35,744 nt of DNA from Planctomycetota bacterium. GTDB lineage: Bacteria > Planctomycetota > UBA11346. Positions 14,479 through 33,780 of the stretch are shown here, in pieces. How positions within the stretch are numbered: position 1 is the first letter of the stretch; each line of letters starts with the position of its first letter. Below the pieces are notes generated by a model. The model saw nothing but the letters and a program-made list of their open reading frames with translations. It did not search any database and was not told the DNA's origin. The stretch covers positions 1-35,744 of the forward strand of contig JBBQSO010000055.1 in the NCBI GenBank assembly GCA_038213805.1, given 5' to 3'. The position numbers and the translations under genes are program-made.

Positions 14479-15333
14479 GTGGAATCCGAACTCGAACGCC
14501 TGCGCAAGAAGGTGGAGAACTTCCCGTCCGCCTCGGCCTACAACCGGCTGGCCGAACTGGTCAGGTCGAGCGGCGACGACGTCGGCGCCGAGCAGGCGTG
14601 CCGGCGTTGCATCAAGGAGTTCCCGCGCAACGGCCAGGCCTACGTGATCCTCGCCGAGATCGAACTCGGCGCCGGGCGCAAGGCCGAGGCGGTCAAGCAC
14701 CTGCTGAGCGCGACCGAGCGCGACAGCCGCAGCTACACCGCGCACAACCTGCTCGCCGAGCATTACATCGCCGAGCGGCAGATCGACCAGGCGCTCGCCC
14801 ATCTGCGCCACATCCTCACCTTCAAGGCCAACGATCCGGCCATTCTGCAGCGCATCGAGCAGCTGCGCCCCGCGGGCGCTGACAGCGCCGTGGCGCGTCC
14901 GGCGGTCGCACCGCGGCCCCCCACCGCCGCGCCCGGCATCACCGCGCCCGCCCGCACCGCCCAGCCCGGTACCGCCAGCCACGCCGCCAGCCGGCTTACC
15001 GGCTTGGCCGCGCTGTGTGCGGAGAGCGGCGTGCGCGGCGCGCTGGTCGCCGATGCGCGCGGCAGGGTGGTGACCAGCGCCGGCCTTGCCCCCGATGTCG
15101 AGGACCTGCTCGCCGGGCTCGCCGCCGAGATCACCGGCGCCGCGGTGCGCGCGCTGGAAGCCGCCGGCACGCCGCGCCTCGGTGTGTGGTCGCTGACCGC
15201 GGCCCAGGGCCAGATCTTCGCCTTCCGCCGCGAGGGTGACTACACCGTGGTCGCGCTTACCGAGTCGGGGGTGCGGCCGGCGATGCTCGAACTGCGTGCC
15301 CGCCAGGCGCTCCACGACCTGGGAGCGGCCTGA
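14479..15333 (+). CDS. TPR + roadblock/LC7 domain protein
   Basis: GTG start after GAGGA RBS. N-terminal ~130 aa of TPR-like repeats, Pro/Ala linker, then roadblock pattern GVRGALVADARG.V......LLAGLAA. Confidence 0.85.
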   Translation: MESELERLRKKVENFPSASAYNRLAELVRSSGDDVGAEQACRRCIKEFPRNGQAYVILAEIELGAGRKAEAVKHLLSATERDSRSYTAHNLLAEHYIAERQIDQALAHLRHILTFKANDPAILQRIEQLRPAGADSAVARPAVAPRPPTAAPGITAPARTAQPGTASHAASRLTGLAALCAESGVRGALVADARGRVVTSAGLAPDVEDLLAGLAAEITGAAVRALEAAGTPRLGVWSLTAAQGQIFAFRREGDYTVVALTESGVRPAMLELRARQALHDLGAA

Positions 15334-15335
15334 CC

Positions 15336-15683
15336 ATGCAGGAGATCCTCGTCCAACTCAACCGCGTGCGCGGCGTCGGCGGCTCGCTGCTGGTCAGCGG
15401 CGAAGGCCTGACCGTGGCCTCGGCACTGCGCGAGGGCCTCGACGAGACCCAGCTCGCCGCCACCGTGGGCGAGGTCATCGATCACGGCCAGCGGCTCTGC
15501 CAGCACCTCGCCCTGGGCGCTCCCCGCCAACTCCAGGCCGGCAGCGAACAGGGCAGCCTGCTGCTCGCCGCCGCCGGCAACGGCTGGCTGGTGGTGATCG
15601 TCGATCCCGCCGCCAACCTCGCCCTGCTCCAGCTCGAGACCAAACCCTTCATCGAACGCCTCGCCCAACGCCTCTCACTCTGA
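15336..15683 (+). CDS. Roadblock/LC7 (MglB/MglC-like) protein
   Basis: 115 aa; IL..LNRVRGVGGSLLVSGEGL.VAS...LAA, then beta-rich GSLLLAAAG..WLVVIV..ANLALL, the roadblock pattern. Confidence 0.85.
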   Translation: MQEILVQLNRVRGVGGSLLVSGEGLTVASALREGLDETQLAATVGEVIDHGQRLCQHLALGAPRQLQAGSEQGSLLLAAAGNGWLVVIVDPAANLALLQLETKPFIERLAQRLSL

Positions 15684-15726
15684 CGACAGAACGCCGGCCG
15701 CGCCCCTGCGGCCCATGGGAACAGAC

Positions 15727-17094
15727 ATGGTCCAGATTAATTTCGGTCAACGTGAAGTCAGCTGCAAAGTGGTGTTCTACGGCCCCGGCATGTCGGGAAA
15801 GACCACCAATCTCGAGATCATCCACAAGAAGGCCCCGAAAGAGGCGGTTGGCGAGATGGTGTCGATCGCGACGGAGACCGACCGCACGCTGTACTTCGAC
15901 TTCCTGCCGCTCGACCTCGGCCAGGTCGCCGGCATGCGCACCAAGTTCCAGCTCTACACCGTGCCCGGCCAGATCTACTACAACGCCACGCGCAAGCTGG
16001 TGCTGCAGGGCGTCGACGGGGTGATCTTCGTCGCCGACTCGTCGCCCGACAAGATGCCGGAGAACCTCGAGTCGCTGCAGAACCTGCGCGACAACCTCGC
16101 CGAGATGAACCTGACCATCGACGACGTGCCGCTGGTCCTGCAATACAACAAGCGCGACCTGCCGGGGGCGATGAGCATCGCCGACCTCAACGCGCAGATG
16201 AATCCGATGAACGCCCCGGTCTTCGAGGGCGTGGCGCGCGAGGGCAAGGGCGTGTTCGCCACCCTCAAGGAGATCTCGCGCCTGGTCATCGAGAAGCTCA
16301 ACAAGGACCACGCGCCGGCCGCCAACCGCCGCCGCACCAACTCGTCGCTGCCCGGCACCACCTCCACGCAGGTGCGGCCCAGCGCCCCGACGCCGGCCCC
16401 GGTCCAGCAGCCGTCGACTTCGGCCACCCCGATGGGCGGTTCGCGCACGCCGCACCGGCCCGCAGCGGTCGCGGCGCCGCCGGTACTGCCGCCGAGCCCG
16501 CGCAGCACCTTCCCGGTGCCGGCCGCACAGCCGACGTCGGCGCACGGGGCCCTCGCGCAGACGCCTGCGCCGGCACCCAGCGACAATCCGCGCGACAAGC
16601 ACCTGGCCAAGGCCAAGCCGCCGGCGCTCGACAACCTGCGGCAGGCGCCCGCGCGCCTGGACCTCGGCACCACCGATCCCAATCTCAAGCGCTACCAGCA
16701 GACTCAGCAGCCGGGTGGCGGTGGTGCTCTGCGCTCCATGCTGACCGTGCTGCTCGGGCTGATCATCGTGGTCATCGTGCTCGCCATCCTGGTGGTCTTC
16801 GTCCCGGCCGTGCGCGCACTGCTGCCGCAGGACATCCAGCGCATGTTCCTGCAGCCCGCGGCTGCCACGCCGGCCCCGGCCGCCGCGGTGGCGGCGCCGG
16901 TCGCGCCGACCGCACCGGCAGTCGCGCCGGCTGGGCCCAAGCCCGCTGCGAGCGCGCCCACTGCGGTCGCGCCGACCACGGCACCCGCCACGCCGGCCGA
17001 GACACCCGCTGCGACCGTCATCCCCGTGCCGGCGGCGCCGCCCGCGCCCGCCCTGCCCGCGACCCCGCCTGCCGAGGGCGCCAATGGTAAGTGA
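15727..17094 (+). CDS. mglA: MglA-family small GTPase with Pro/Ala-rich extension and transmembrane helix
   Basis: KVVFYGPGMSGKTTN (G1), TETDRTLYFDF (switch I with catalytic Arg), LYTVPGQ (switch II), NKRD (G4). TM-like LTVLLGLIIVVIVLAILVVFV at 16741-16803. Confidence 0.95.
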   Translation: MVQINFGQREVSCKVVFYGPGMSGKTTNLEIIHKKAPKEAVGEMVSIATETDRTLYFDFLPLDLGQVAGMRTKFQLYTVPGQIYYNATRKLVLQGVDGVIFVADSSPDKMPENLESLQNLRDNLAEMNLTIDDVPLVLQYNKRDLPGAMSIADLNAQMNPMNAPVFEGVAREGKGVFATLKEISRLVIEKLNKDHAPAANRRRTNSSLPGTTSTQVRPSAPTPAPVQQPSTSATPMGGSRTPHRPAAVAAPPVLPPSPRSTFPVPAAQPTSAHGALAQTPAPAPSDNPRDKHLAKAKPPALDNLRQAPARLDLGTTDPNLKRYQQTQQPGGGGALRSMLTVLLGLIIVVIVLAILVVFVPAVRALLPQDIQRMFLQPAAATPAPAAAVAAPVAPTAPAVAPAGPKPAASAPTAVAPTTAPATPAETPAATVIPVPAAPPAPALPATPPAEGANGK

Positions 17095-17599
17095 AAACGA
17101 CGCCCTCCGCCTGCGCCGCCTGGTCTTCTATGCCCAGGACATCGACCGCATCAACGCCGCGCTGCTGACCTTCATCAAGAAGGCCAACGCGCAGTGCGCG
17201 CTGGTCATCGACAAGGAGGGCCACATGGTCTCGCGCCAGGGCTTCTTCAAGCAGGATTCGTCCGCGCTGGCGGCGCTGGTCTCGGGCAGCTTCGCCAGCA
17301 CGCGCGAGGTCGCGCGCCTGCTCGGCGAGCCCGAGTTCCGCACCATGTTCCACCAGGGACCGGGGCAGAGCATCCACATCACCCTGATCGGCGAGCGCAC
17401 CCTGCAGGTCGCGGTGTTCCCCGCCCAGGTCAAGGCCGGCATGGCCCAGGTGCTGTGCAAGGAACTCGCCGTGCAGCTCGACGCGGTGATGGCCGACGCC
17501 GGGCGGCGCAAGCCGGATGACGCCAAGCAGGAGACGCTGGGCCAGAACTTCTCTGCCGAGATGAAGACCCAGCTCGATTCCCTGTTCGGCAACCTCTAA
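17084..17599 (+). CDS. mglB: MglB roadblock GAP
   Basis: LVFY..DI.RIN.......ANA...VIDKEG, ALAALVSGSFAST..VARLLGEPEF..MFHQG..SIHI closely follows Myxococcus/Thermus MglB, with C-terminal LDSLF helix. Overlaps the mglA stop. Confidence 0.92.
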   Translation: MVSENDALRLRRLVFYAQDIDRINAALLTFIKKANAQCALVIDKEGHMVSRQGFFKQDSSALAALVSGSFASTREVARLLGEPEFRTMFHQGPGQSIHITLIGERTLQVAVFPAQVKAGMAQVLCKELAVQLDAVMADAGRRKPDDAKQETLGQNFSAEMKTQLDSLFGNL

Positions 17600-17611
17600 A
17601 CCGGCTACGAC

Positions 17612-20600
17612 ATGGGTTTCCAAGGACAGTTGAGCTCGGTCAACCTGGCCGACATCTTCCAGACCCTGCACATGAACCGCCAGACCGGCACGCTCATCGT
17701 GACCGGTGCCGGGCAGAGCGTCGTGCACATCTATTTCGACAACGGCCAGGTCGCGGTGTGCGCGGCGGCGCCGATCGAGGGTTACGCCTTCCTGATCCAC
17801 TCGCTGCTGCGCAAGGGCATGCTCCAGGCCGACCAGGCCCAGGACCTGCAGCACCGCGTACAGACCACCGGCCAGCCGGTGCGCGACCTGCTGCTGGCCA
17901 GTGGCGCGGTCGGCGAGGGCGAGGTCGACGAGATCGCCGCGTGGTGCATCGAGGAGGTGGTCTGCCCGATCTTCGAGTGGAGCGAGGGTGACTTCACCTT
18001 CGCCGACGGCGCACCCACGGCCGCGCTGCAGTCGGTCGACGTGGTGTCGATGGGGCGCAGCGGGCTGCAGACCACCCAGCTGCTGCTCGAGGCGACGCGG
18101 CGCAAGGACGAGTGGAAGCGGATCCGCGAGGTCATCACCGACGCCAACGCGCTCTACGTGGTCGACAACGAGGGCCGCGCCAACCTGCGCAACATCCAGA
18201 CCGACGCCGAGATCCTCAAGGTGCTGCGTTATCTCGACGGACGCCACCGCCTGGATGACATCGCCTCGGCGGTCGGGGTGACGCGCTTCGACACCTTCGC
18301 CATCGCCGCGCAGCTGGTGCTGGCCGGGGTGGCGCGGCCGCGCACACCGCAGGAGCTGGTCGCCGACGCCGACGCGCTGCGCCGCACCGGCGAACTCGAC
18401 ACCGCGCGCGCGCTGCTCGAAAGCGTGCTGCCGGCGGCCAACGTCCCCGAAGTCATCCGCCCGCTCGCCGAGATCAACGCCGAGCTCAAGAACGCGCCGC
18501 GCGCGGTCGAACTCTACCTCGAGCTCATCCAGCTCGCCCAGGACCAGGGCAATCTCGAGCAGGCGCGCGCCGACCTCGACACCGTGCTGAGCCTGTCGCC
18601 CGACGACCCCGACCTGCAGTTCGACCGCGCCAAGGTGCTCAGCGAGCTCGGTCACATGGAGGACGCCGCAGCGGCCTACGTCGCCGCCGCCCAGGCCTTC
18701 CTCGCCACGCGCGACACCGAACGCGCCATCGACGCCTGCCACCGCGCCAAGAACCTGGTGCCCAAGAACCCCGATCCGCACCGCTATCTGGCCAAGGCCT
18801 ACCTGATGACCGGGCAGACCGAGAACGCGCTGGTCGAGTACCGCGCGCTGTGGCACGCCCTGCTCACCAGCCTGCGCCCGCGCCGCGCCATCGAGGTGCT
18901 GCGCGAAACTCTCGAGGCCGACTGCCGCTTCGCCAACGTCAAGGAGCAGGTCCTCAACCAGGCGCTGAATTCCGAGGCGGTCAAGACCAGCAAGGCCACC
19001 CGCGTGCTGGTCTACGTGGTGATGGGCCTGGCCCTGGCCGGGGCCGCGGTGCTGGGGGTCGAATACTGGACGCGGATCCTGCGCGTGCGCGGCGCCGGTG
19101 AGGCGGTCGCCACCTTCGAGGCGACCAAGGGCGAGCGCCAGCGCGCCGGCCAGCACCTTGACCTGCAGCGCGAGATCGACGCCCTGCGCAAGCAGTACGG
19201 CGAGATCCCGCAGGTCGCCGAGCACCTCAGCCAGATCTCGGCCGAGATCGCCAAGGACTTCGAGAGCCTCGCCCAGCGCCAGCTCGAGACCGCCGCGACC
19301 CTGGCCGATGGCGGACAGTTCGCGAAGGCCATCGCCACCGTCACCGACCTCAAGCAGCGCTACCCGGGCACGCCCGCCGCGGCCGGGGCCGACGCGCGCA
19401 TCGAGGCACTGCGCCAACAGCAGATCGGCACCCAGGTGGTGGCGGTCGCCGACGAGGCGCGCCGGCGCTGGGACGCCGACGACTGGGACGGCGCGACCGC
19501 CCAGCTTGCCGAGGTGCTCAAGACCGGCGAGCTGCCCACCGACGTCCGCACCAAGCTGGGCGCCACCGCCGCCGATTGGAACGCGGCGCTGCACAGTGCG
19601 CAGCGCCTGGGCGAACGTGCCGCGCGTCTGGAACAGGGCGGCCACCTGCGCGAGGCGATCGCGGGCTACCGCCGCGCCGGCGCCGCCGAGGGCGAGCCGT
19701 TCGCCGCCCAGGCGCGCGAGAAACAGGGCGTGCTCGAGCTGCGCCTGGCCCACGACCTTGATCACGCCGCCCAGCAGGCCTTCGCGCGCGGCGACGACAA
19801 GACCGCCTTCGCCCAGCTCGACGAGCTCGCTGCTCTGGCGAAGAGCGCGGGCGGCAGGGTCAGCGAATTCACCGCGACCGTGAAGATCCCCTTCACCGTC
19901 ACTGTCGACAGCCCGCTGACCCGGCTGGTGGTCAAGCGCCCCGGGATGGCGGACCAGACCTTCCGCGCACCTGCCGGCAGCACCACCACGTGGAAGCAGC
20001 GCATCGACTACCTGCCGGCCGAGACCCTGACCGTCGAGGCGCGCCGCGCTGGCTTCAGCCCGGTGACCCTGGCGATCGCCGCGGCCGCGCGCAAGGCGCA
20101 GGCGACGGTAGCCCTCAGCCGCGGCAGCCTGTGGCAGAGCGAACTCGGCGCGGTGGCGACCACCATGCCGGTGGCGGTCGGCAAATACATCCTGCTCGCC
20201 ACCGACAAGGCCACCATCGAGGTCGTCGACACCGGTCTGGGCGCGAGCAAGCCGGTGCTCTTCCCGCAGACCGTCGACGAGTTCAAGAGCGCGCCGCTGG
20301 TCTTCCAGAACCTCGCCTACAGCGTTCTGGACAACCGCCTGTCCTGCGTCGACGTGGCGACGCGCACCATCCTCTGGACGTTTCCGCCGCAGGCGCAGCC
20401 CAGCGCGCTGCACCTGACCGGCGGGCTGTGGGTGCAGGAGCACGAGCTCATCCCCGGCGTGGTCCTGGCCTTCGCCGGCGGGGCGGGCGGCGAGCTGCTG
20501 ACGTGGGCCTATGCCAACGGCAAATTCACGCCGTACCCGAAGATCGCCCTGGGCGGCGACCTCACCGGCGCGCTGTTCGGCGACCAGTTCGAGCCCAACC

Positions 20601-21199
20601 ACACCATCCTCTATGCGCCGACCGGCACGCAGATCACCGCCTACGACACCACCGCGGCCACCGAGCACACCGCCGCCACCCTGCTGTCGACCTTCCACAC
20701 CCGTGGCGAGGTGGTCGGACGCATGGTGCGCGCATCCGTCGCCGGCCGGCCGGCGCTGCTGGCGATCGACGCCTCGGGCCTGCTGGTCGCCATCGACGGC
20801 AACCCGTCCGCGCCGGAGGGCAAGCGCGCACTCGGCTCGTGGGCGGTCGAAGGCAGCGGCACCGGCGCCCCGGTCGTCGCCGGTGAAACCGCTTACGTCG
20901 CGGTCACCGAAGGCAAACTGACCGCGGTCGACCTCACCCGGCCCGGGCAGCTGCGCTGGCGCTTCCCGGCGACCGGCGCGATCGGTGGACTGAGCGGGGC
21001 CCCGGCGCTCGGCCAGCGCGGCCTCTACCTGGCCGACGCCAACGGCACCCTGCACTGCATCGACGCGCAGAGCGGCGCCGAGCGCTGGCACGCCGATCTG
21101 GGCTCGCCGGCCACCGCCGGCATCGTCGCCGCCGAGGGCAAGGTCTACATCCCCCTGCGCAACGGCACCCTGACCTGCTTCGAGGAGGGCGCGGAATAG
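17612..21199 (+). CDS. DUF4388 (PATAN-like)-TPR-TM-TPR-PQQ/BamB-like beta-propeller protein
   Basis: FQGQLSSVNLADIFQTL...TGTL..IYFDNG..IFEWSEGDFTF (DUF4388); multiple TPRs; hydrophobic helix at ~19004-19060; C-terminal propeller repeats (LSCVDVAT...LW, LTAVD...LRWRF, LHCIDAQSGAERW). Confidence 0.88.
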   Translation: MGFQGQLSSVNLADIFQTLHMNRQTGTLIVTGAGQSVVHIYFDNGQVAVCAAAPIEGYAFLIHSLLRKGMLQADQAQDLQHRVQTTGQPVRDLLLASGAVGEGEVDEIAAWCIEEVVCPIFEWSEGDFTFADGAPTAALQSVDVVSMGRSGLQTTQLLLEATRRKDEWKRIREVITDANALYVVDNEGRANLRNIQTDAEILKVLRYLDGRHRLDDIASAVGVTRFDTFAIAAQLVLAGVARPRTPQELVADADALRRTGELDTARALLESVLPAANVPEVIRPLAEINAELKNAPRAVELYLELIQLAQDQGNLEQARADLDTVLSLSPDDPDLQFDRAKVLSELGHMEDAAAAYVAAAQAFLATRDTERAIDACHRAKNLVPKNPDPHRYLAKAYLMTGQTENALVEYRALWHALLTSLRPRRAIEVLRETLEADCRFANVKEQVLNQALNSEAVKTSKATRVLVYVVMGLALAGAAVLGVEYWTRILRVRGAGEAVATFEATKGERQRAGQHLDLQREIDALRKQYGEIPQVAEHLSQISAEIAKDFESLAQRQLETAATLADGGQFAKAIATVTDLKQRYPGTPAAAGADARIEALRQQQIGTQVVAVADEARRRWDADDWDGATAQLAEVLKTGELPTDVRTKLGATAADWNAALHSAQRLGERAARLEQGGHLREAIAGYRRAGAAEGEPFAAQAREKQGVLELRLAHDLDHAAQQAFARGDDKTAFAQLDELAALAKSAGGRVSEFTATVKIPFTVTVDSPLTRLVVKRPGMADQTFRAPAGSTTTWKQRIDYLPAETLTVEARRAGFSPVTLAIAAAARKAQATVALSRGSLWQSELGAVATTMPVAVGKYILLATDKATIEVVDTGLGASKPVLFPQTVDEFKSAPLVFQNLAYSVLDNRLSCVDVATRTILWTFPPQAQPSALHLTGGLWVQEHELIPGVVLAFAGGAGGELLTWAYANGKFTPYPKIALGGDLTGALFGDQFEPNHTILYAPTGTQITAYDTTAATEHTAATLLSTFHTRGEVVGRMVRASVAGRPALLAIDASGLLVAIDGNPSAPEGKRALGSWAVEGSGTGAPVVAGETAYVAVTEGKLTAVDLTRPGQLRWRFPATGAIGGLSGAPALGQRGLYLADANGTLHCIDAQSGAERWHADLGSPATAGIVAAEGKVYIPLRNGTLTCFEEGAE

Positions 21200-21500
21200 G
21201 CGCGAGCGGAGTGGTCGTGTGCGGTCCGCGGACCGGGCGCGAGCGTCGATCAACAGCGGTCGCAGGCAGCCCGGGCCGGCCGGTGGAAAGACGCGGCACC
21301 AGCTGGCGTCAGCACCAGTGCGAAACGGTCGCTGACCTACCGTTCCATGTCCGGTTCCAGGCGGTTGTGGCGTCACTCGCCGAAATCATCCAGTTTGGCC
21401 GCCTTGGCCGCCCGTCCATGTCGGATATTCCGCCTTCCAGCCTGCAACACTCTCTTGAAGCTAGGGTACCCTCTCCATGGAATCATCACCGGGACCAGCC

Positions 21501-22124
21501 ATGCGCCGCGGCTTCACCCTCATCGAATTGCTGGTGGTCATCACCGTCATCGCGATCCTCGCGGGGCTGCTCATCCCGCTGATCTCGATCGCGCTGCAGA
21601 AGGCGCGCGAGGCCAAGTGCCAGGCGAAGATCGCCAACATCAGCGCGGCAATCAACAAGTACCGGGACGCGAACGGGGTGGTGCCGGACCGCATCAACGC
21701 CAACGCCTTCGCCGGCAGCACCAGCATTCAGGCCGCAGACCTGCCGGTGGTCGGTCAGGGGTACCAGGATATCTTCTCCTCCGGAGCCACGCCGAAGACC
21801 GTCGACCAGCTCAGCGAGAGCGAATGGGAGAGCATCGGCAAGAACATCGTCGCCCAGCTCGGCACCGTCGATCGCGACAATTTCAAGACGCTCGACGACT
21901 TCCGCGACCCGTTCGGCGCGGGCATCAAGTCCAAGGTCTTCCGCTATCGGCCGGCGCGCTTCTATTCGCTGCAGATCACCGGCAACGCCAGTACACCGCT
22001 TACGTATCCCGACTCGGATGACCCGCCCAACCCCGACACCTTCCAGCTGTGGTCGGTCGGCGCGAACGGTAAGGACGAGTACGGCAGCGCCGACGATCTG
22101 CCGAACTGGAAGAAGAAGAAGTAG
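21501..22124 (+). CDS. Prepilin-type protein, GspG-like (pseudo)pilin
   Basis: MRRG|FTLIELLVVI class III signal with E5; DPFG..FRY and FQLWSVGANG...DDLPNW GspG-like C-terminus. Confidence 0.92.
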   Translation: MRRGFTLIELLVVITVIAILAGLLIPLISIALQKAREAKCQAKIANISAAINKYRDANGVVPDRINANAFAGSTSIQAADLPVVGQGYQDIFSSGATPKTVDQLSESEWESIGKNIVAQLGTVDRDNFKTLDDFRDPFGAGIKSKVFRYRPARFYSLQITGNASTPLTYPDSDDPPNPDTFQLWSVGANGKDEYGSADDLPNWKKKK

Positions 22125-22263
22125 CATGACCGCGGCCCGGCGCAGCGGAGCGGGCGTCGGCATGGGCGGGAATCCCGGCACGTACGGGCCGCACGCGAGG
22201 GCCCCGCTCATGCAGCGGTGCGCTGCGACCCGCCCACCAGCGGCCACCCCCTGCCAGCACCCG

Positions 22264-23709
22264 ATGAACGCCACGCACGCAGCCTGCGCCAACCGCGCAC
22301 GAAGCACTCCGCGCTCCGCACTCCGCACTGCCACCCGCATCCCGCGCGCCGCCTTCACTCTGATCGAGATGATGGTGGTGATCTGCATCATCGCGATCAT
22401 CGCGGCGATCACCCTCGGTTCGATCTTCGGGACGCGCACCGTCAACCGCCTGCTTGCGACCGAGCAGCTGATCGGCGACCTGGTGCGTCAGGCGCGCCAC
22501 ACCGCGCGTTCCACCGGCGCGCCGGTGGTGCTGCGCATCACCCGCGACGCACCCGACGCGGCGGGCAACAGCAGTGGCGCGACCATCGCCGGCGTCAGCC
22601 GCATTCCGCTGTGGACGGAGCCCTTCGAGGGCCCGACGGTCGGCAGCCCCAACGCCATCCCCCTGCCTTCCGCTCCGCATCTGGGCGTCACGGGCTATGG
22701 CTGGTGGACCGGGGGCACCGCTGCCAGCGGCGTGGCGGCCGCCACGGGCCCGGCGGGCCCGCCGCCCTTCGCCGCCCTGGACCGTAATCAGGAGATCACG
22801 CGCGGGAACAGCGCGCGGCGCCTGAGCGACGGCTTCTATTTAGCTTGCACGGTCAACCCGAAACAGGCCGCACCGAACGCCACGCCCATACCGCTGCTGC
22901 TGGTCGGCGATTCGGCCGACATCGCGACCTCGTTATGCGGACTGATCCTGGTGCCGGACACGCGCGCGATCCAAAAGGTCAGCGGCGCGACCGCCAACCT
23001 CGCCAGCTACGAGATTGTCGGCTGGGTGCGGCCGCAGGGCGCGCTGGCGCCCGTCGAGGTCTCGTCGCTGGACAGCGCGGACATCCCCACCGGGGTGCTG
23101 CGCGACGAGCCGCTGCTGCACCCGTCGGTGTCCGGCGAGACCCACCCCAACGACATCGCTGGACCGCTTGCCGGCGGCCGCTGGGAAGAACTCGGCCTGC
23201 TCTACGACGGCGAGCGCCTGGTGCTGTACCGCAACGGCCGCCGCGTCGGCGAGAAGCTGCTGCCCACCGGTAGCGCCAGCCGCCTGCCCACGGGCGGCGC
23301 GCAGATCCACATCGGCGAGGCGGGGACGCAGACCGCCGACGCGACCTGCTTCGACGACTGCCGTTTGTACCGTTTGGCCACCGACCAGCTCGGCCGGCTG
23401 CCCGGACAGGTGGTGCCGAACGACGACTACCAGATCGTCGCGCACCCCGACGGCCGCGTCGAGGTCAACGTCGCCGCGGCAGCGGCCACGGCCGCGGGTG
23501 TGGGCGCGGGCGCCGGTGGCACCACGCTGCCCAACGCCGTCGCCAACGCCAACGCCAGCACCACCATCGCCGTCACCATCGCCATGACCAACCGCGTCCA
23601 GCACGCCGACATCACCATCACCGTCGATGGCCGGGTGAGCAGTGCGCTGCAGCTGGACAGCAAGGGCACGGCGGCGGCGCCGACGGTCGCCATCACCGGC
23701 GTACCGTGA
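22264..23709 (+). CDS. Prepilin-type minor pilin (GspH/FimT-like N-terminus) with LamG-like domain
   Basis: RAA|FTLIEMMVVI; L.RQARHTA.STG.PV.L GspH/FimT-like helix; WEELGLLYDGERLVLYRNG...IHIG...FDDCRLY LamG-like pattern. Start could be 22126, 22210 or 22264. Confidence 0.87.
   Translation: MNATHAACANRARSTPRSALRTATRIPRAAFTLIEMMVVICIIAIIAAITLGSIFGTRTVNRLLATEQLIGDLVRQARHTARSTGAPVVLRITRDAPDAAGNSSGATIAGVSRIPLWTEPFEGPTVGSPNAIPLPSAPHLGVTGYGWWTGGTAASGVAAATGPAGPPPFAALDRNQEITRGNSARRLSDGFYLACTVNPKQAAPNATPIPLLLVGDSADIATSLCGLILVPDTRAIQKVSGATANLASYEIVGWVRPQGALAPVEVSSLDSADIPTGVLRDEPLLHPSVSGETHPNDIAGPLAGGRWEELGLLYDGERLVLYRNGRRVGEKLLPTGSASRLPTGGAQIHIGEAGTQTADATCFDDCRLYRLATDQLGRLPGQVVPNDDYQIVAHPDGRVEVNVAAAAATAAGVGAGAGGTTLPNAVANANASTTIAVTIAMTNRVQHADITITVDGRVSSALQLDSKGTAAAPTVAITGVP
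22304..22331 (+). repeat. GCACTCC-type heptamer x4 inside the prepilin leader
   Basis: gcactcc gcgctcc gcactcc gcactgc read directly. Confidence 0.7.
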
Positions 23710-23735
23710 GGCCGCAAGCGAACGAGGCCCGACTC

Positions 23736-26700
23736 ATGCGTAACCGCGCCCGACGTCCATCCCGCAGCTGCGTGCTCCACCGGCGCGTGCAGCCGGCGCG
23801 CGCCGGCATCGCCCTGATCATGGCCCTGGTGATCCTGGTGGCGTTGATCATCCTCGGTCTGCCCTTCCTGTTCTCGCAGTCGTCCAGCCTGACCGGCACG
23901 CGCACCTTCGCGCACAGCCAGCAGGCCTATGTCGGGCGTACCGCCGCCGAGAATCTCGGCGTCGCATCCGCCACCGCCGCGGTCGCGCAGCATTTCCAGC
24001 CCACCGGCGCCGCCGCCGGCACCGCCCCCGGCGCCGACCCGCTCGAGGAATGGACCAGCCTGAGCGACAACCTCGACCCGGCGGTGCACGCCAACGTGCC
24101 CACCGGCTTCGCCACGCTGCTGCTCGACAATCGCGTCGGCCTGGACCCCAAGCAGCTCAACCTGACCCCCGCCGCGCAGCGCCGCTACAACGCGGTGGCG
24201 GAGAACGCCGCGTTGATCGGCGTGACCCTCGAGGACGAGTCGGGCAAGCTCGACCCCAACTACCTGTCGGTGGCGGCGTGGGACGCGCTGCTGCGCAAGG
24301 TCGGCATCAGCGACTGGGATGACAACGCGACGATCAACAGCAAGTGCTACTACAACAACACCACGGCCAAGTACGAGCAGTACTCGGACGCCGACACCTA
24401 CGGTGAGCTCGCCCTGGCGCTCAGCGAGGTGCGCCTGCTGCCGGCGCTCAAGCACCGTCCGATCGAGCGCCTTGAGCAGCTGCTGCTCGCCGACACCCAC
24501 CACTGGGCGCAACAGGGCGGCAGCTTCAGTTATCCGAGCAGCTCGGCGCCCACCGTGCGTTTCGGCCTGCGCCGGATGCTCACCCGCGCGGAACTCGAGC
24601 TGCTGCGGCCCTACCTGTCGCTGGCCAATCTCGGCCAGGGGCGCTCCGGCCTGATCGATCTCGGGACGGTGGTCAAGCTCGACGACAACATCGGCATCGA
24701 CCACGCCTTGTTCGTCGACGGCAATTTCGAGACCCTGCTCGGTTTCGGCACCTGGATCACCGCCGACCAGCTCGATCCCGCCTCGGGACAGGATCGCCAG
24801 GGCGTGGTCGAAGGCTACTTCGGCAACCTGAACGTCCGCACTGAACCGCTGGGGTCGCCCAACCCGCCGCTCGCCCAGCAGGGCGTCGGCCTCGCCATCC
24901 AGGCGCCTCCGATGGTCAACATCCACGCCGCCAGCGAGGCCGTGCGCGACGCGCTCGGCTACGTTTCCAAGCCCACCACCAGACCGCTGCGCACGGTCTC
25001 GCAGCTCATCACGCTCGGCCTGATGCCGGTCGGCAACACGCCGATGAACGTCCAGCTTACCGTCGCCTTCGACCTGCAGAACCCGCTGGCGCTGCGCTTC
25101 GAGGGCAATCCGCAAGAACAGCTGCGCCCGATCGAGCACCCGCCGCTGGCGATCGCCTCATCGGGCGTGGTGACCATCGAGTCCGCCGCCACCATCACCG
25201 ATCCACAGGGCCGCCAGGACGCCCAGGCCAAGCGCCGCATCGTCGTCCAGGCGGTGCCGCAGGAAACCGCGCTGGAGCAGCGCTGGCTGACCCAGGGCAT
25301 GTTCTCGACGCTGCTCGCGCAGCGCTCGGGCAGCAACCTCGAATCGTGGCCGAACCCGTTCCGCCGGCTCAAGCGCAGCAGCGACCCGCTGACCCTGCCG
25401 AACGATCCGGACCTGGGTGCGGGCGGCAGCGCCGTGGCCGGCACCGGGCTCAAGCCGATTACCGGGCCGAGCTATGCGACCGGCTACATCCACCGCGGCG
25501 ACCTGAACCCCGCCAAGCGCGTGCCCAGCCACGTCACCATCGACTGGCGCGCGCCCTTCGGCGCCGATCTGCCGATCGACACTGCCACCGACGGCGTCGC
25601 CAACGAGACCCTGCAGGGCCTGGTGCCGGTCTCGCCGTCCACCGCCTACGCGGGCCAGGACATGCGCCCCGACGGTCTGCATCTGAGCACCGGTTCGCCG
25701 CTCGCGTATGGTCTGGCCGCCGACGCCAACCAGGGCGCGGCGCACGGCCTTTTCCGGCGCTCGCATCTCAGATTGGGCACCCAGGTGTGGGAACTGGGCA
25801 ACCGCCAGATCAGCTTCTGGATCAAGCCGGAGAGCGACTGGACCGGGATCGTGCCGCTGCTTGAGATGCGCATGCCGGCCGGCCAAGCCGCCGGCGAGAT
25901 CACCCCGGGCGGCGCGCCGGGCGCCGGCAGCAACGAGCTGCAGAACTATTTCGGGCTGTTCTACGACCGCACCCAGCAGCTGCTGGCCCTGGTCATCGCA
26001 CCGCCGGCGATCGAGCACACCGGTGACTACGGTCCGCTGATCCCCAAGGATGACACCGACCTCACTTTCGATTTCGATGAGCGCTCGCTGGGCAGCGACG
26101 CGCCGGGCGCGACCTTTCCGCTCGCAGCGCGTCAGGTGCCGGACAGCGATCCGATGGCCAAGACCTCGGCCAAGCTCGCCAGCATCTCGACGCTGTTCCG
26201 CCCCAACCGCGTCATCCACATCTACCGCGTGCGCGACGCCAGCGCCGGCAAACCGTTCTTCCGCCAGAACCAGTGGTACAACATCCAGCTCGCCCTGGCC
26301 AACGACCGCCCGGGCGGCGCGGCGATCATCGTCGACGGATTGGTCGGACGCGATGCGGCCAAGGGCCCGGCCGCGACCTGCGTGCTCGACAAGACCGGCG
26401 ACCACCTGACTCTGCCCGGCCTGCCGATCACGGCAGAGATCGTGAAGGTCGACGCCACCACCGCCTTCGGCAATGGGCTGAAGGTCGCGGCGGTCACGGT
26501 CAAGGCGGTGACGCTCAAGACTTCTGGCGCCGACGTCGTGCTGCACGCCGCCGACCTCTTCCCGGTGCACGGGCAGGTTAAGATCGACGACGAATACTTC
26601 ACCTACGACAAGGTCACTGGCGACACGTTCTCCACGCTGGTGCGTGCGCAGCGTCAGAACACCAACACCACCGCCGGCACCCTGCAGGGCCGCTGGCCGG

Positions 26701-29018
26701 TGACCCAACACCACGCGGTGGGCACCCTGGTGACCCCGTCGGGCTACCGGCTGCGTCTGCCTGGCGGGACCTTCTTCGTGGGCGGTTGCGCGCTGGCCGA
26801 TCCCCTGGGGGCCGGCGACATGATCGATCCCAACTGGGCGATCTGGGCGCAGGCCGATCCCACCAAGGCGCCGATCATCCCCGACCCGACCGACCTGACC
26901 GGCAACCGCTATATCGTGTTCCAGGGCGACATTCCCCACGACATCCCGATCAAGGGCGGCCTGGGCGTGATCACGCAATTTCCGCAGAGCGGCATCGTGC
27001 GTCTGAACGGCCACGTCTTCTCGTACGCGTCGCGCAGTGCGACCGCGCTGCAAGGCGTCGCTGACCTCGCCGGCTTCACCTTCGCCGGCCCGGGTGCACC
27101 GCCGATGGGCGACACCGGCCAGTTCACCATCAACAAGACCCAGCTGAACTCGCTGCGCATCGTGCTGCTGACCACGTCGTTGACAGGCGATCCGACGGCG
27201 CCGAACGCCTACAGCCAGAATGGCGGGGGCGCGCAGCTGGCCCAGGTGGTCGATGCCGCGACCGGCCGTGTGGAATGGGTGCGCTATGACCTGTTGGCGA
27301 GCAATGGCGGCGTAGGCCACCTCTACGTCAACGACGGTTGGAACTATCCCTCCAACCGCGGCCAGCAGCGCACCTACCACCCGGGGCGGCTGTCGCCCGG
27401 GTACAGCAGCCTCACCCCCTTCGCCGCGGGCAGCCAGCTCATCGCGGTGCAGAGCGATATGCCGAATTCCGGCCACTGCATCGCCACCGGCGACGTGGTG
27501 ACGATGATCACCAAGGACACGCTCGGCACGGTCGCGCCGCTGCAGATGGTGGTGCGGTACGCGGCCATGGACGGCTACGACGCCGTGGCCGACTCGCGCA
27601 ACGGCAGCTATGACACCAAGAACGAATACTTCGCCTTCATGGACAACCTGCCCATGGGTTTCCCCACCGCCGCCAACCGCTTCGAGCTGATCAGCTGGCC
27701 ATGCTGGAGCAGCATCGACCTGACCGGGCCGGGCAACGCGCAGATGAACACCGGCGACATGCCGCGCCATTACATGCCGCGCCTGGACGCCCTGGCGCAG
27801 GGCTACGCGCCCGGCGGCCCCGCCTCGCCGGCCGCCCGGGTCTTCGTCGCGGCCGCGGACAGCGCGCGCGGCGGCCTGACCACCATGGCCGACGCCACCA
27901 TCGACGCCCTGGTCGCGGGGCCGCTGCCCGCCAATCCCACCGCGGCCCAGACCAGCGCGCTGCTGGACAACAACCAGGGCTGGACCAACCAGGGCGGCAG
28001 CGCGCTGGTGACCGCCGACGGCAACGGCATCGGCGCCGCCGTCGGTGACCTCGGTGCCTACGTCCATTCCAGCGACCAGGTGTTCGCGACCCCCACCGGC
28101 CTGGCCCTGATCGGCGGTGAGGTCTTCGCCTGGGAACGCAGCCACCTGCCCAACCCGGATGCGCGCAGCGCCAAACTCATCGGCCGCGGGCTGCTCGGCT
28201 CGGAAAAGGTCACGCACGCAGGGCCAGAGCCGCTGCTGATCCTGCCCATCGGTCCGGTGGCGCAGATCGAGGGCACCCTGCCGGAACAGGACTTCTTCCA
28301 GCTCAGCGACCAGTTCTTCAACAGCAGCCCCTCCTCGCCGGTGCTGGACGCGCCGGTGGCGATGATCTGCGATCCGGGCGGCGACCCCACCAAGGTCGAA
28401 CTCGTCCAGTTCGTCGGCCCGCGGCAGCGCGGCAACGTCAATTCGTACGTCACCGCGCCGTGGCTGCGTGGCCTGTACAACACCGTCAAGCAGACCTGGG
28501 GCCCGAGCGGCGGCCAGAAGCCGATCGTCATCGGCTGGTGGCCACGCTACGCCAGCGCGCTGCCCGGTTCAGGGGCGACGGCGGAGCAGTTCCGTTCGCG
28601 CACCTACGCCTGGGCGGGCTTCCCATTCCGTCTCCACGATGCACGCTTCGACCGCGCCCTGCTCGCCGCCAAGAGCGCGGAAGTCGCCACCGTCAAGCTC
28701 CTCGACCCGGAGATCGGTGACGCCTTCCGCATCGAGGCGCGCGCGCTTGCCCGGGGCTTCGATTGGACGCCTGCCACCGTGATGACGCTCAACACCGCCT
28801 CGACCAGCGATCAGGACGTCAGCACCGCATTCGGCCCGGCCTTCACCAACCAGGCGGTGGACGGCGCGGAGCTGCGCCTGACCTGGCATTACCTCAAGGA
28901 CCCCTCGGGTCTGCTGCCCGACATCGCCGCCGCCGGCAACCGCGCGCCGGCGATCGGCCCGGTGCGCCTGCGCTGCCTGGCGCCCACCGAGATCCTGTCG
29001 GTGGAGGGCCAGCAGTGA
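23736..29018 (+). CDS. Giant GspK/PilX-like minor pilin, putative tip adhesin (~1760 aa)
   Basis: RAG|IALIMALVILV signal lacking E5 (a GspK/PilX trait), LEDESGKLDPN GspK-like motif, later ISFWIKP/WYNIQL LamG-like strands and a beta-rich Gly/Thr/Pro body. Start GTG 23706 or ATG 23736. Confidence 0.88.
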   Translation: MRNRARRPSRSCVLHRRVQPARAGIALIMALVILVALIILGLPFLFSQSSSLTGTRTFAHSQQAYVGRTAAENLGVASATAAVAQHFQPTGAAAGTAPGADPLEEWTSLSDNLDPAVHANVPTGFATLLLDNRVGLDPKQLNLTPAAQRRYNAVAENAALIGVTLEDESGKLDPNYLSVAAWDALLRKVGISDWDDNATINSKCYYNNTTAKYEQYSDADTYGELALALSEVRLLPALKHRPIERLEQLLLADTHHWAQQGGSFSYPSSSAPTVRFGLRRMLTRAELELLRPYLSLANLGQGRSGLIDLGTVVKLDDNIGIDHALFVDGNFETLLGFGTWITADQLDPASGQDRQGVVEGYFGNLNVRTEPLGSPNPPLAQQGVGLAIQAPPMVNIHAASEAVRDALGYVSKPTTRPLRTVSQLITLGLMPVGNTPMNVQLTVAFDLQNPLALRFEGNPQEQLRPIEHPPLAIASSGVVTIESAATITDPQGRQDAQAKRRIVVQAVPQETALEQRWLTQGMFSTLLAQRSGSNLESWPNPFRRLKRSSDPLTLPNDPDLGAGGSAVAGTGLKPITGPSYATGYIHRGDLNPAKRVPSHVTIDWRAPFGADLPIDTATDGVANETLQGLVPVSPSTAYAGQDMRPDGLHLSTGSPLAYGLAADANQGAAHGLFRRSHLRLGTQVWELGNRQISFWIKPESDWTGIVPLLEMRMPAGQAAGEITPGGAPGAGSNELQNYFGLFYDRTQQLLALVIAPPAIEHTGDYGPLIPKDDTDLTFDFDERSLGSDAPGATFPLAARQVPDSDPMAKTSAKLASISTLFRPNRVIHIYRVRDASAGKPFFRQNQWYNIQLALANDRPGGAAIIVDGLVGRDAAKGPAATCVLDKTGDHLTLPGLPITAEIVKVDATTAFGNGLKVAAVTVKAVTLKTSGADVVLHAADLFPVHGQVKIDDEYFTYDKVTGDTFSTLVRAQRQNTNTTAGTLQGRWPVTQHHAVGTLVTPSGYRLRLPGGTFFVGGCALADPLGAGDMIDPNWAIWAQADPTKAPIIPDPTDLTGNRYIVFQGDIPHDIPIKGGLGVITQFPQSGIVRLNGHVFSYASRSATALQGVADLAGFTFAGPGAPPMGDTGQFTINKTQLNSLRIVLLTTSLTGDPTAPNAYSQNGGGAQLAQVVDAATGRVEWVRYDLLASNGGVGHLYVNDGWNYPSNRGQQRTYHPGRLSPGYSSLTPFAAGSQLIAVQSDMPNSGHCIATGDVVTMITKDTLGTVAPLQMVVRYAAMDGYDAVADSRNGSYDTKNEYFAFMDNLPMGFPTAANRFELISWPCWSSIDLTGPGNAQMNTGDMPRHYMPRLDALAQGYAPGGPASPAARVFVAAADSARGGLTTMADATIDALVAGPLPANPTAAQTSALLDNNQGWTNQGGSALVTADGNGIGAAVGDLGAYVHSSDQVFATPTGLALIGGEVFAWERSHLPNPDARSAKLIGRGLLGSEKVTHAGPEPLLILPIGPVAQIEGTLPEQDFFQLSDQFFNSSPSSPVLDAPVAMICDPGGDPTKVELVQFVGPRQRGNVNSYVTAPWLRGLYNTVKQTWGPSGGQKPIVIGWWPRYASALPGSGATAEQFRSRTYAWAGFPFRLHDARFDRALLAAKSAEVATVKLLDPEIGDAFRIEARALARGFDWTPATVMTLNTASTSDQDVSTAFGPAFTNQAVDGAELRLTWHYLKDPSGLLPDIAAAGNRAPAIGPVRLRCLAPTEILSVEGQQ

Positions 29019-30142
29019 GCCGCCTGATGCATCACCACGGCGCTTCGCGCGCCGGCCTGACGCTGATCGAGATCCTGGTCTCGATCCTGATCCTGTCGGT
29101 GGTCTCGATCGCCATGATCGGCATCTTGATGGTCAGTTCGGAGCTGTTCCGGCGTGGCGAGTTCAGCCGCTCGGCGAACGATGAGGCGATCGCGGTGATG
29201 GGGGCGCTGGATGATGATGTGAAGCGCATCATCCCGGTGGTGGATGGGGGTTGGCTGTATGCCGGACTTTCGACCACTCCCAATGGCAACTGCATCCTGG
29301 GCATGGCCATCCCGAATCCCGATCCGTCGGGCATCACCAGCACCGGCACCAACGGGCGGCTGGTGGTGGCGTGGTTCGTGGATGCGCAGGACAATCTGGT
29401 GCGGGTGCAGCGCGAACTGACCACAGCGGGCACCCCGCCGGGGTTTACCGTCGAGGCTCAGCTGCTCAATGACGTCGACGCGGTCATCACCTCCGGCGCC
29501 ATCGGCACGAGCATGGCGACGAATGCCACGCCGGGGTCGAGTCCGACGCAGGCGCAGATCATCACCACAGGTTGCCTGCATTTCAGTCCCTGGCTGAGTC
29601 TGGACGATCCCAGCTACCCGAGCATGAAGCGCACTCACGACGCCAATGGCATCAACTGGGAGGATCCGTCATGCGACCCTCTCGAAAACGCGCCCTTCGC
29701 GGCAGCTCCGGGCGCTTCGGGGGGGTTCGCCACCAATCCCGGGATACCAAGTACCACTACCAGCAGCGGAATTCCGGCAATTCCGATGCCCGCAGCGATG
29801 CGCATCACCGTGGTGTTGACCGGCGGTGGGCGCTTCGCGCCCAAGGGTATCCTGACCGGACCCATCACCGGTGGCGGTGGCGGCGGCGGTGGCCAGGTTC
29901 CGATCTCTGGCGTCGCGGTGCTGCCCACCACGCCCGGATCGATGCTGCGCATCGATCCCGATCCCAGTGGCGGGACCGTCGCTAATGGCAGCGAGTGGAT
30001 CGAATACAGCAACTACAGCGGTGGCAAGGCCACCATCGTGCGCCGCGGTGCGCGGCGCACGAACCAGAGTGCGACCCACGCCAAGGGCGACCTGGTGCGC
30101 GTCGGCGTGACCTATAGCTTGGTACGCAGCCTGCCCCACTAA
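29015..30142 (+). CDS. Prepilin-type minor pilin (GspJ/PilW-like)
   Basis: RAG|LTLIEILVSILIL with E5, L.DDV.RI helix, W..D....LVR and AMRITVVL elements. GTG overlaps the upstream stop (GTGA); alternative ATG 29027. Confidence 0.88.
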   Translation: MSRLMHHHGASRAGLTLIEILVSILILSVVSIAMIGILMVSSELFRRGEFSRSANDEAIAVMGALDDDVKRIIPVVDGGWLYAGLSTTPNGNCILGMAIPNPDPSGITSTGTNGRLVVAWFVDAQDNLVRVQRELTTAGTPPGFTVEAQLLNDVDAVITSGAIGTSMATNATPGSSPTQAQIITTGCLHFSPWLSLDDPSYPSMKRTHDANGINWEDPSCDPLENAPFAAAPGASGGFATNPGIPSTTTSSGIPAIPMPAAMRITVVLTGGGRFAPKGILTGPITGGGGGGGGQVPISGVAVLPTTPGSMLRIDPDPSGGTVANGSEWIEYSNYSGGKATIVRRGARRTNQSATHAKGDLVRVGVTYSLVRSLPH

Positions 30143-32731: not shown

Positions 32732-32880
32732 TGATGGCTGATGGCTGATGACTGATGGCGGACGACTGGCGCTCCGCGCCTGGAATCGCGCGTGCGGAGA
32801 TCATCTCCGCCACTTTTTCAGCCCAGGACACTGTGATACCAAGCCATCAGCCATCAGCCATCAGCCATCAGCCGCCATCA
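32732..32880. repeat. Inverted pair of TGATGGC heptamer arrays
   Basis: TGATGGC-type x4 (32732-32759) and GCCATCA x4+1 (32843-32880) flanking an ~83-bp spacer. Confidence 0.9.
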
Positions 32881-32887
32881 GCCCAGC

Positions 32888-32916
32888 TGGCAATCCCGCC
32901 CCAAATAGGTTACACT
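32888..32916 (+). promoter_or_regulatory. Possible sigma70-type promoter of cheY
   Basis: TGGCAA-N17-TACACT, 38 bp upstream of the ATG. Confidence 0.35.
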
Positions 32917-32954
32917 CCCGGGAACCGCTTCATCTCCCGAACCCGGAATCCCCC

Positions 32955-33326
32955 ATGCCCAAGAAGATCCTGGTCGTCGACGACTCCGCGATGATGCGCA
33001 AGATCATCATCAAGAACATGCGCGACTGCGGCTTCGCCATCGATCCGCAGGAGGCCGGCGACGGCGTCGAGGCGGTCAAGATCTTCGCCGCGGGCGGCAT
33101 CGAGGTGGTGTTCACCGACTGGAACATGCCCAACATGGATGGGCTGACGCTGGTGAAGGAGATCCGCAAGCTCGATCCGCAGAAGAAGATCCCGATCATC
33201 ATGATCACGACCGAGGTGACTCCGGACAAGGTCAAGGAAGCGGTCCTGGCCGGCGCCACCAACTACATCGGCAAACCGTTCACGCCCGAGAAGCTCAAAG
33301 AGAAATTCGAGAAGTATCTGATTTGA
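32955..33326 (+). CDS. cheY: Single-domain response regulator, CheY-like
   Basis: KILVVDDS, TDWNMPNMDG phosphoacceptor, IPIIMITTE, YIGKPF; lies upstream of cheA. Confidence 0.9.
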   Translation: MPKKILVVDDSAMMRKIIIKNMRDCGFAIDPQEAGDGVEAVKIFAAGGIEVVFTDWNMPNMDGLTLVKEIRKLDPQKKIPIIMITTEVTPDKVKEAVLAGATNYIGKPFTPEKLKEKFEKYLI

Positions 33327-33750
33327 CCGTAGGCTGCAGAACGTCTGCGGGTGTGGCCACACCGCCGCGCCGTGCGCGCCAGCGGAGCAGCTAACGTACG
33401 CGCCACAAGCGTCGACGGCATTCGCCCTGACACCGAAGTCATAGCGTCGCAGCGATTCCAACATCCTGTCAACCACGGGTCACCCGGGTCCAGCCAACCG
33501 GTCATGGCGGTGAACCGCCTTCGAAATGTCCGATTTTGCGCGTGGGTACGGTCGTTGGACCCACGCTGCGGGCGTCGCTGCGGATGCGCAGCAAAACCAC
33601 TGCTCAAATGGTTTGCGCAAGATTGTGTAGAAGGTTGGCGCTGCCGTGCGGTTTCTGACTGGGACCCAGGGCGGCACGAACTTACGCTGTGGAATGGACT
33701 TCATCGCGAGGTCATGCCCGGCAACCATTGGCGCGTGTCCTGAGTCTTCG

Positions 33751-33780
33751 TTGACTTACGGGCGATCCCGGCGGTATCCT
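33751..33780 (+). promoter_or_regulatory. Possible sigma70-type promoter of cheA
   Basis: TTGACT-N18-TATCCT, ~50 bp upstream of the ATG. Confidence 0.45.

Follow-up and report, generated by a model that had tools for sequence, protein, structure and literature searches.

A predicted membrane-anchored MglA GTPase with a long linker and an exported tail in Planctomycetota

Background

MglA is the model for polarity switching in bacteria by a Ras-like GTPase. In the accepted picture, it is a small soluble protein that leaves one pole of the cell and rebinds at the other. The present work concerns an mglA gene in a stretch of 35,744 nucleotides from a Planctomycetota bacterium (assembly GCA_038213805.1, contig JBBQSO010000055.1), called the window throughout. 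Its product continues beyond the G domain into a long linker, a transmembrane (TM) helix and a tail. A preliminary description of this DNA took the characterised MglA proteins to be soluble and about 195 amino acids (aa) long; the solved chains, of 195-203 aa, bear this out, and the lengths given in the available text of a survey of the family (PMC4316618, Wuichet & Sogaard-Andersen 2015) agree.

In that survey, sequences of more than 240 aa were dropped (39 of 488 in the MglA clade). Within its available text the word 'Planctomycetes' never occurs, and 'transmembrane' turns up in a single passage, which deals with a conservon histidine kinase rather than MglA. A description of an anchored MglA was not found in the full-text literature searched, subscription-only papers lying outside it. 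The current work confirms that the extended architecture is real and conserved, in line with the first reading of the DNA. We consider it likely that the protein belongs to a membrane-tied MglA/MglB GTPase switch whose action takes place at the membrane, perhaps with a pilus-like machine as its target.

Architecture of the window MglA

The open reading frame (ORF) occupies 15715-17094 on the forward strand and encodes 459 aa. The homologue N-terminus corresponds to MVQINF at the second Met, and M1 is invariant in the alignment. Since all aligned homologues begin at this second Met, 15727-17094, a form of 455 aa, is likely the gene, and 15727 was taken as its start. The parts of the protein are as follows (pLDDT, predicted local distance difference test).

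15727..16320, + strand: MglA G domain, residues 1-198 (PDB matches, invariant catalytic residues, pLDDT mostly 70-94)
16309..16338, + strand: conserved basic patch right after the G domain, HAPAANRRRT (alignment conservation)
16339..16587, + strand: variable Pro/Ala/Thr-rich linker (low conservation, many gaps, pLDDT 43-62)
16588..16698, + strand: two cytoplasmic motifs ahead of the helix, PRDKHLAKAKPPxLD and DLGxTDPxLKRYQ (alignment conservation)
16735..16812, + strand: predicted transmembrane helix, uncharged span S337-V362 (hydropathy, AlphaFold2, conservation)
16798..16848, + strand: conserved post-helix motif, FVPAVRxLLPxxxQRMF (alignment conservation)
16849..17094, + strand: Pro/Ala/Thr-rich tail and stop codon, putatively periplasmic (composition, pLDDT 50-58)

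In a PDB search, the whole G domain matched Thermus MglA (3t12_A, E 1.1e-75) and M. xanthus MglA (5ymx_A, E 2.3e-70), and the next-best solved families were Arf, Sar1 and Rab, at E 1.8e-05 or worse; Pfam gave only generic Arf/Ras similarity. The intact domain of about 195 aa that the preliminary description reported, with G1, switch I Arg, TVPGQ and NKRD, is present in full. The P-loop GxxxxGKT, D52-R53-T54, T78-V-P-G-Q82 and N141-K-R-D144 are invariant across 107 aligned sequences, and the catalytic set of MglA (P-loop, Arg finger R53, T78 of TVPGQ, Q82 and NKxD) is complete in the window protein. The roles of residues of this set, which includes an intrinsic Arg finger and a Thr that replaces Asp in G3, are in part treated in PMC4316618 and PMC3000849. 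Judged by homology and by these residues, the G domain is of the group 1 type of the MglA family of Ras-like GTPases and catalytically complete, and binding and hydrolysis of GTP are predicted. The full protein, at 455 aa with linker, TM helix and tail, lies outside the single-domain range of 150-240 aa used in the survey; it is a variant architecture of the MglA family, not a small soluble member.

In the basic patch immediately behind the G domain, R202 does not vary, and conservation reaches 90% or more at A196, P197, R203 and T204 (alignment A2). The 143 residues between G domain and helix contain 27 Pro, 23 Ala and 14 Thr, and are also rich in Ser and Arg. Conservation rises again in the two motifs ahead of the helix, where P298 is invariant and H292, L293, K295, G314, T316, P318 and L320 are at least 90% conserved; short helices are predicted within them by AlphaFold2 (289-293, 301-305 and 321-326), and a run of Gly separates them from the TM helix. 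These motifs were sought in the best 120 database proteins (252-804 aa) of 6204 at E<=0.001 among 8000 scored candidates, referred to below as the best 120 long homologues. KHLxK occurs in 99 of the 120, and the DLGxTDPxLKRYQ motif in 76.

The Kyte-Doolittle (KD) mean over 19 residues peaks at 3.72 over residues 341-359 of the 455-aa form, the sole segment of the protein above 1.4; at the N-terminus, hydropathy gave no hydrophobic segment. The uncharged span comprises 26 residues, S337-V362, and the hydrophobic helix first placed at 16741-16803 falls inside it. AlphaFold2, run on the 107-sequence alignment, predicts one continuous helix at 333-358 with pLDDT 78-95, flanked by disordered regions at about 200-330 (pLDDT 43-62) and 376-455 (pLDDT 50-58). 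The low-complexity linker of about 140 aa and the Pro/Ala/Thr tail of about 95 aa in the preliminary description correspond to these disordered parts and measure 143 and 93 residues.

Reality of the long reading frame

High GC content opens long frames by chance, and several spurious ORFs overlap the mglA region, so that a normal mglA of 195 aa might have been joined by a frameshift or read-through to GC-rich non-coding DNA. GC content at third codon positions is 0.84-0.98 in the mglA frame along the whole ORF, which is weak evidence in the Pro/Ala parts, as all three codon positions are GC-rich there. Run X1, possibly the source sample, has contigs over 16246-17600 that show 0 differences. 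For run X2, which represents a second sample in that study, contigs span 15943-16664 with 1 substitution and 16677-17206 with 0 differences, and X2 is an independent bridge of the junction between G domain and linker. No indels are listed in the X1 and X2 contigs over mglA. Runs X3 and X5 hold parts of the stretch only, at 90-99% likeness, from related organisms, and were not counted as support for the assembly. In six metatranscriptome runs, 0.06-0.09 of the sampled words of the stretch were present.

The frameshift fusion that the preliminary description wished to see excluded was thus checked on contigs in place of reads. Besides the second sample, which bridges G-domain end, linker and motifs without an indel, the same architecture recurs in 64 of 67 complete genes from assemblies of different species, the extension carries conserved motifs, and the mglB start falls exactly at the end of the long frame. 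Conservation weighs more than the contigs here. An artefact of this kind is therefore exceedingly improbable.

Relatives of the anchored MglA and their distribution

Exactly one hydrophobic segment follows the G domain in 112 of the best 120 long homologues and none in eight; a TM helix is accordingly conserved among long MglA homologues, a point that the first reading of the window proposed to check. An MglA G domain was found at E<=1e-20 in 175 of 301 sampled Planctomycetota genomes. Of 20 matches fetched from 19 other families, 18 escape truncation by a contig end. In 17 of these 18, a hydrophobic segment with KD>=2 lies at or close to the C-terminus, and the remaining one ends in a less hydrophobic stretch.

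A scan of species representatives gave 577 relatives among 599 candidate stretches, and the best 80, which are 79 distinct loci, were kept. Almost every one bears the title Planctomycetota or that of a class within it, whereas a single locus is titled Zixiibacteriota and a few just 'bacterium'; six duplicate loci of the earlier 20 matches. The ORF is complete in 67 of the 79, and 64 of the 67 encode the helix. Only one complete ORF is no longer than 240 aa: it has 220 aa, with its stop inside the linker, and lies on a 2.5-kb contig. The other two without a helix have a weakly hydrophobic end and a basic amphipathic end, respectively. With the helix kept in 112 of the 120 long homologues and in 64 of the 67 complete ORFs, a chance hydrophobic segment is excluded.

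The number of residues after the helix separates these relatives into two classes, with 0-22 residues in 48 of the 64 and 30-143 in the remaining 16; the 48 would be tail-anchored proteins. The two classes also part in the G-domain tree, in which the ultrafast bootstrap was not fully settled. There, all 18 long-tail rows and three cut or helix-less rows form one clade, to which the window gene belongs (100/98, ultrafast bootstrap and SH-like approximate likelihood ratio test), and 46 tail-anchored rows form another with eight cut rows (96/91). A query of 96 aa holding the motifs and helix of the window protein found matches in 14 of 15 genomes of its own family. Elsewhere it gave a single marginal match (E 6.7e-4), in another family, and the other 284 genomes had none.

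The tail-anchored MglA proteins of Planctomycetota share with the window protein the G domain, a Pro/Ala/Arg-rich linker (80-273 aa), a single TM helix, and Roadblock and mglB neighbours. Unlike the window type, they end 0-22 aa after the helix and lack the helix-flanking motifs of the window protein. With 93 residues after the uncharged span, the window MglA does not itself count as a tail-anchored protein; an N-terminal hydrophobic segment is likewise absent from it. The TM-anchored form is the usual form of MglA in Planctomycetota, and the window gene is a clade-specific elaboration of a phylum-wide anchored design, not the peculiarity of one gene.

A LAMTOR1-like wrapping of Roadblock dimers by the linker was also considered and set aside, as no common motif runs through the linkers of these tail-anchored proteins.

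The predicted membrane anchor and its orientation

The membrane tether proposed in the preliminary description holds as far as sequence can tell: one very hydrophobic, confidently helical segment, at a position conserved in many independent assemblies. Lys and Arg residues within 15 positions of the helix average 3.52 before and 0.36 after it in the tail-anchored relatives (n=64), and 3.78 before and 1.94 after it in the long-tail relatives (n=18), six duplicated rows being included in these averages. Since basic residues precede the helix, the G domain needs cytoplasmic GTP and no N-terminal hydrophobic segment is present, the predicted orientation is N-in, C-out, with the G domain in the cytoplasm and the tail exported.

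The helix of most relatives forms the very end of the protein, a position shared with C-terminal sorting signals. This allows another explanation, in which the segment is a sorting or cleavage signal or an oligomerisation element rather than a stable anchor, and the mature GTPase is soluble. We hold this to be very unlikely. The protein has no N-terminal signal peptide or other hydrophobic segment, and its basic residues stand before the helix rather than behind it. Both the KD of 3.7 across 19 residues and the 26-residue uncharged span are typical of a membrane span. No NCBIfam model of a sorting domain matched, which sets the protein apart from the PEP-CTERM, LPXTG and GlyGly-CTERM signals; only a weak hit to oadG_fam (E 0.0011) lies on the helix region. 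That hit, over residues 341-393, was rejected as a look-alike by composition and topology (a TM helix with Pro/Ala), not homology.

The public (JGI) names given to anchored MglA proteins, for example P0002, P0010 and P0076, include 'hypothetical', 'decarboxylase gamma subunit' and 'signal recognition particle receptor subunit beta'. Most likely such names are wrong and arise from the Arf-like G domain and from the stretch of TM helix plus Pro/Ala. The window protein is no signal recognition particle receptor beta subunit: its helix is C-terminal, and its G domain fits MglA far better than any other solved GTPase.

The region beyond the helix

In the post-helix motif conservation is 90% or more at V359, P367 and Q371, and helices are predicted at 360-363 and 368-375. 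A loose pattern of this motif matches 85 of the best 120 long homologues. The 93 residues beyond the uncharged span comprise 32 Ala, 23 Pro and 9 Thr, with Ala and Pro together at 59%. A Pfam scan found no folded domain in the tail, TonB_C included, and any likeness of the window MglA to TonB-like proteins is one of Pro-rich composition only.

The AEGANG[KQ] sequence is the C-terminal end in 22 of the best 120 long homologues, and xG[KQ] in 52. The mglB start lies 11 nucleotides before the mglA stop at 17074-17094 (ATGGTAAGTGA), and GAGGG stands 5 nucleotides upstream of the ATG in the window. In all six xG[KQ]-ending loci that were read, the last 11 nucleotides, ATGGT[AC]AGTGA, are the mglB start (M-V-S-E/D) in another frame. 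The overlapping mglB start explains the recurrent tail end without any peptide function, and a docking peptide at this end was rejected.

The extracytoplasmic part could nevertheless have work to do. The post-helix motif and the tail might contact a periplasmic propeller or pilin-like proteins, and thereby link the state of the GTPase to the periplasm across the envelope. Conservation of V359, P367 and Q371 would agree with such a coupler, as would the long tail that defines one clade (100/98) and the Lys/Glu/Pro/Ala repeats in the tails of some relatives, such as P0022. Repeats of this kind have a TonB-like spacer composition. The neighbours of mglA include single-pass proteins with large regions beyond their TM helix, and GltJ of Myxococcus, a bitopic partner of MglA, links both sides of the membrane according to the available text of PMC11135422. 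The tail itself, however, is variable, of low complexity and predicted to be disordered, with no folded periplasmic domain. Its sole apparently conserved end is due to the mglB start, and 48 of 64 relatives manage with only 0-22 residues after the helix. We regard such coupling as unlikely. It is equally doubtful that MglA of this clade is a Ras-like GTPase with its own extracytoplasmic part, through which, with no separate receptor, events at the pilus or cell surface control the nucleotide state in the cytoplasm, or the other way round. On this view, anchored forms of bacterial MglA, with a TM helix in Planctomycetota and an amphipathic end in a second phylum, would be common and overlooked.

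The mglA gene cluster

The genes between 14479 and 30142 are all on the forward strand and form a set of nine, in which mglA is the third. The other eight are the following.

14479..15333, + strand: TPR and Roadblock/LC7 protein, 284 aa, first in the cluster (Pfam TPR_19 1e-08, Robl_LC7 1.4e-05)
15336..15683, + strand: small Roadblock/LC7 protein, 115 aa (Pfam Robl_LC7 1.2e-09; PDB 7yh1_D 1.7e-07)
17084..17599, + strand: mglB, homologue of the Roadblock GTPase-activating protein (GAP), 171 aa (M. xanthus MglB 6izw_B 1.5e-19, residues 12-168)
17612..21199, + strand: single-pass membrane protein of 1195 aa with PATAN (DUF4388) and TPR, TM helix at 465-483 and a C-terminal PQQ-like beta-propeller (Pfam)
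21477-22124, + strand: pilin-like gene 1 (one N-terminal hydrophobic helix)
22018-23709, + strand: pilin-like gene 2, true start probably near 22330 (one N-terminal hydrophobic helix)
23706-29018, + strand: pilin-like gene 3, 1770 aa, no Pfam family (one N-terminal hydrophobic helix)
29015-30142, + strand: pilin-like gene 4 (one N-terminal hydrophobic helix)

The mglB product also matches the NCBIfam MglB model at 6.6e-18, below the model cut-off. As mglB overlaps the mglA stop by 11 nucleotides, the two genes are probably translated together and tightly coupled. In the PATAN protein, Pfam recognised DUF4388 (6.7e-24), several TPR families and PQQ_2 (1.6e-15). N_methyl matches among the pilin-like genes have values of 3.1e-08, 5.4e-05 and 4.3e-04. 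The 1770-aa protein, of which the second cluster described below has a 34%-identical copy of 1875 aa, could be a tip protein or a giant relative of minor pilins.

All nine genes recur as a set on contig C38 of the same genome (L004:970-17042, minus strand), at identities of 34-73% and of 67% for MglA overall. In this second cluster the TPR-Roadblock protein has a 48%-identical copy, the PATAN protein a 50%-identical one, and the four pilin-like genes copies of 34-37.5% identity; the pilin-like genes also have copies in a genome of the same genus. The G domains of the two MglA paralogues are 95% identical, and their codons differ by 48 synonymous against 9 non-synonymous changes in 195. This pattern points to purifying selection, not to recent gene conversion.

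The genome, 90% complete, holds three MglA-like G domains, all in proteins with a TM helix, and no soluble MglA was found in it. The third G domain (45% identical; contig C9, L116:1623-6056, minus strand) heads a protein of 1477 aa. Behind it come a stretch resembling a Zn ribbon, then a protein kinase domain (Pfam 1.3e-10), a single TM helix and about 790 aa of C-terminal region. A T2SSE ATPase gene lies about 11.6 kb from this gene on contig C9.

Across the 79 related loci, a Roadblock gene upstream and MglB downstream were found together in 50, the upstream gene only in 14, the downstream gene only in nine, and neither in six. Roadblock thus stands upstream of mglA in 64 loci and MglB downstream in 59, and a PATAN gene follows mglB in nine; these counts are lower bounds, as they come from single-sequence phmmer searches, which are less sensitive, and many loci reach contig ends. 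Six relatives of the same family were read. All have the TPR-Roadblock gene upstream, and four have the PATAN gene after mglB; of the two that do not, one is truncated by its contig end. One relative, of the same genus, has all nine genes, and another has five of them plus the giant gene and the last pilin-like gene; contig ends cut two of the six.

About 2.6 kb past the cluster, after unrelated genes for TerC, superoxide dismutase and an HTH-cupin protein, come the genes of a response regulator (Response_reg 1.1e-25) and then of a CheA-like kinase (Hpt 7.2e-27, H-kinase_dim 2.1e-09). The pair spans 32748-35734, the kinase running off the end of the window. A chemosensory input to the MglA module is possible.

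Proposed action of the switch

In the mechanism that we favour, the G domain would hang from the inner face of the cytoplasmic membrane on its flexible linker, with the tail in the periplasm. MglB would act as GAP, and the extra Roadblock proteins as co-regulators of the GTP/GDP cycle, as in Myxococcus. The contour length of a 140-residue linker is estimated at about 50 nm and its typical extension at much less. The switch would therefore reach only membrane partners within the range of the linker, tens of nm at most. It would move by lateral diffusion only, and would not be released into the cytoplasm to rebind at the other pole. If the protein is permanently tied to the membrane, its effectors must be at the membrane too.

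The likeliest targets would be the co-encoded PATAN-TPR-propeller protein and the pilin-like proteins, and this co-encoded set makes a pilus-like machine the best guess. PATAN corresponds to DUF4388; as reported in the available text of 10.1101/2021.06.11.447907, the pilus motor PilB1 of Synechocystis is a binding target of PATAN regulators, and PATAN genes are often found beside those for MglA/MglB. In M. xanthus, MglA stimulates type IV pili via a TPR protein, according to the accessible parts of PMC7519303 and PMC7668184. The switch might thus set the place or the time of assembly of a pseudopilus machine or one like a type IV pilus. This is the weakest step of the mechanism, and we put it forward tentatively, as somewhat short of an even case.

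Several observations weigh against this mechanism. The module is not universal in the phylum, for no MglA match was found at E<=1e-20 in 126 of the 301 sampled genomes. One same-family relative has five of the genes and no pilin match in the next ~11 kb, and another has four and no PATAN gene within ~14 kb. The constant core is made up of the (TPR-)Roadblock, Roadblock, MglA and MglB genes, and the PATAN and pilin-like genes are frequent, not obligatory. Of nine matches to the T2SSE pilus/secretion ATPase in the genome, none is on the contigs of the two clusters, C55 and C38. Finally, the TM helix is a prediction from hydropathy, AlphaFold2 and conservation.

Implications

A whole phylum appears to hold the same catalytic core on the membrane by a long leash, under strong purifying selection. 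This raises the question of whether the MglA/MglB switch can work in two dimensions, like Ras and Rab, and of what replaces shuttling from pole to pole. It also marks a blind spot, as the survey in PMC4316618, in its available text, left out sequences above 240 aa, and automatic annotation calls such proteins the beta subunit of the signal recognition particle receptor or 'hypothetical'. The link with PATAN and pilin-like genes points to a concrete phenotype in genetically tractable planctomycetes.

Comparison with known systems

The closest described systems are the MglA/MglB pairs (group 1) of M. xanthus and T. thermophilus. The G domain of the window protein is about 65% identical to both, with the same R53, Q82, T78 and NKRD, and the modules share an adjacent mglB and extra Roadblock proteins. 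The characterised MglA has no anchor, whereas the window protein is extended by 257 residues of linker, TM helix and tail. The gene order also differs: in the window it is Roadblock-mglA-mglB, with mglB downstream and overlapping, unlike the M. xanthus/T. thermophilus module.

GltJ of M. xanthus, as described in the available text of PMC11135422, resembles the window MglA in being a single-pass protein of the MglA pathway whose switch region lies in the cytosol and which also has one TM helix and a flexible part in the periplasm. It is, however, a partner of MglA and not a GTPase, and it ends in TonB-C, whereas the window protein has no folded periplasmic domain.

A second anchoring device may exist in the phylum of the Zixiibacteriota-titled locus (L111), where the G domain is present in 60 of 61 sampled genomes (G301-G361). 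The 15 genes read there (L123-L137) encode 311-398 aa with a hydrophilic linker. None of these 15 has a TM helix, the maximal KD over 19 residues being 1.27, and 14 of them end in KKRGFFKRLFG[IVL]K or a near variant. This basic amphipathic end, which takes the place of the TM helix of the window protein, looks like a membrane-binding device. It resembles the membrane-targeting end of MinD and would give reversible, not permanent, anchoring. That the same switch is equipped with different anchoring devices in two phyla argues for selection on membrane attachment as such.

Among eukaryotic GTPases, Ras and Rab have a hypervariable linker and a lipid anchor, Miro and Toc34 are tail-anchored, and the helix of the signal recognition particle receptor beta subunit is N-terminal. 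The window protein has in common with them a G domain held at the membrane, a flexible C-terminal region and action in two dimensions. It differs from them in that its predicted anchor is an encoded TM helix and not a lipid, its linker is several times longer, and its G domain is of the MglA type.

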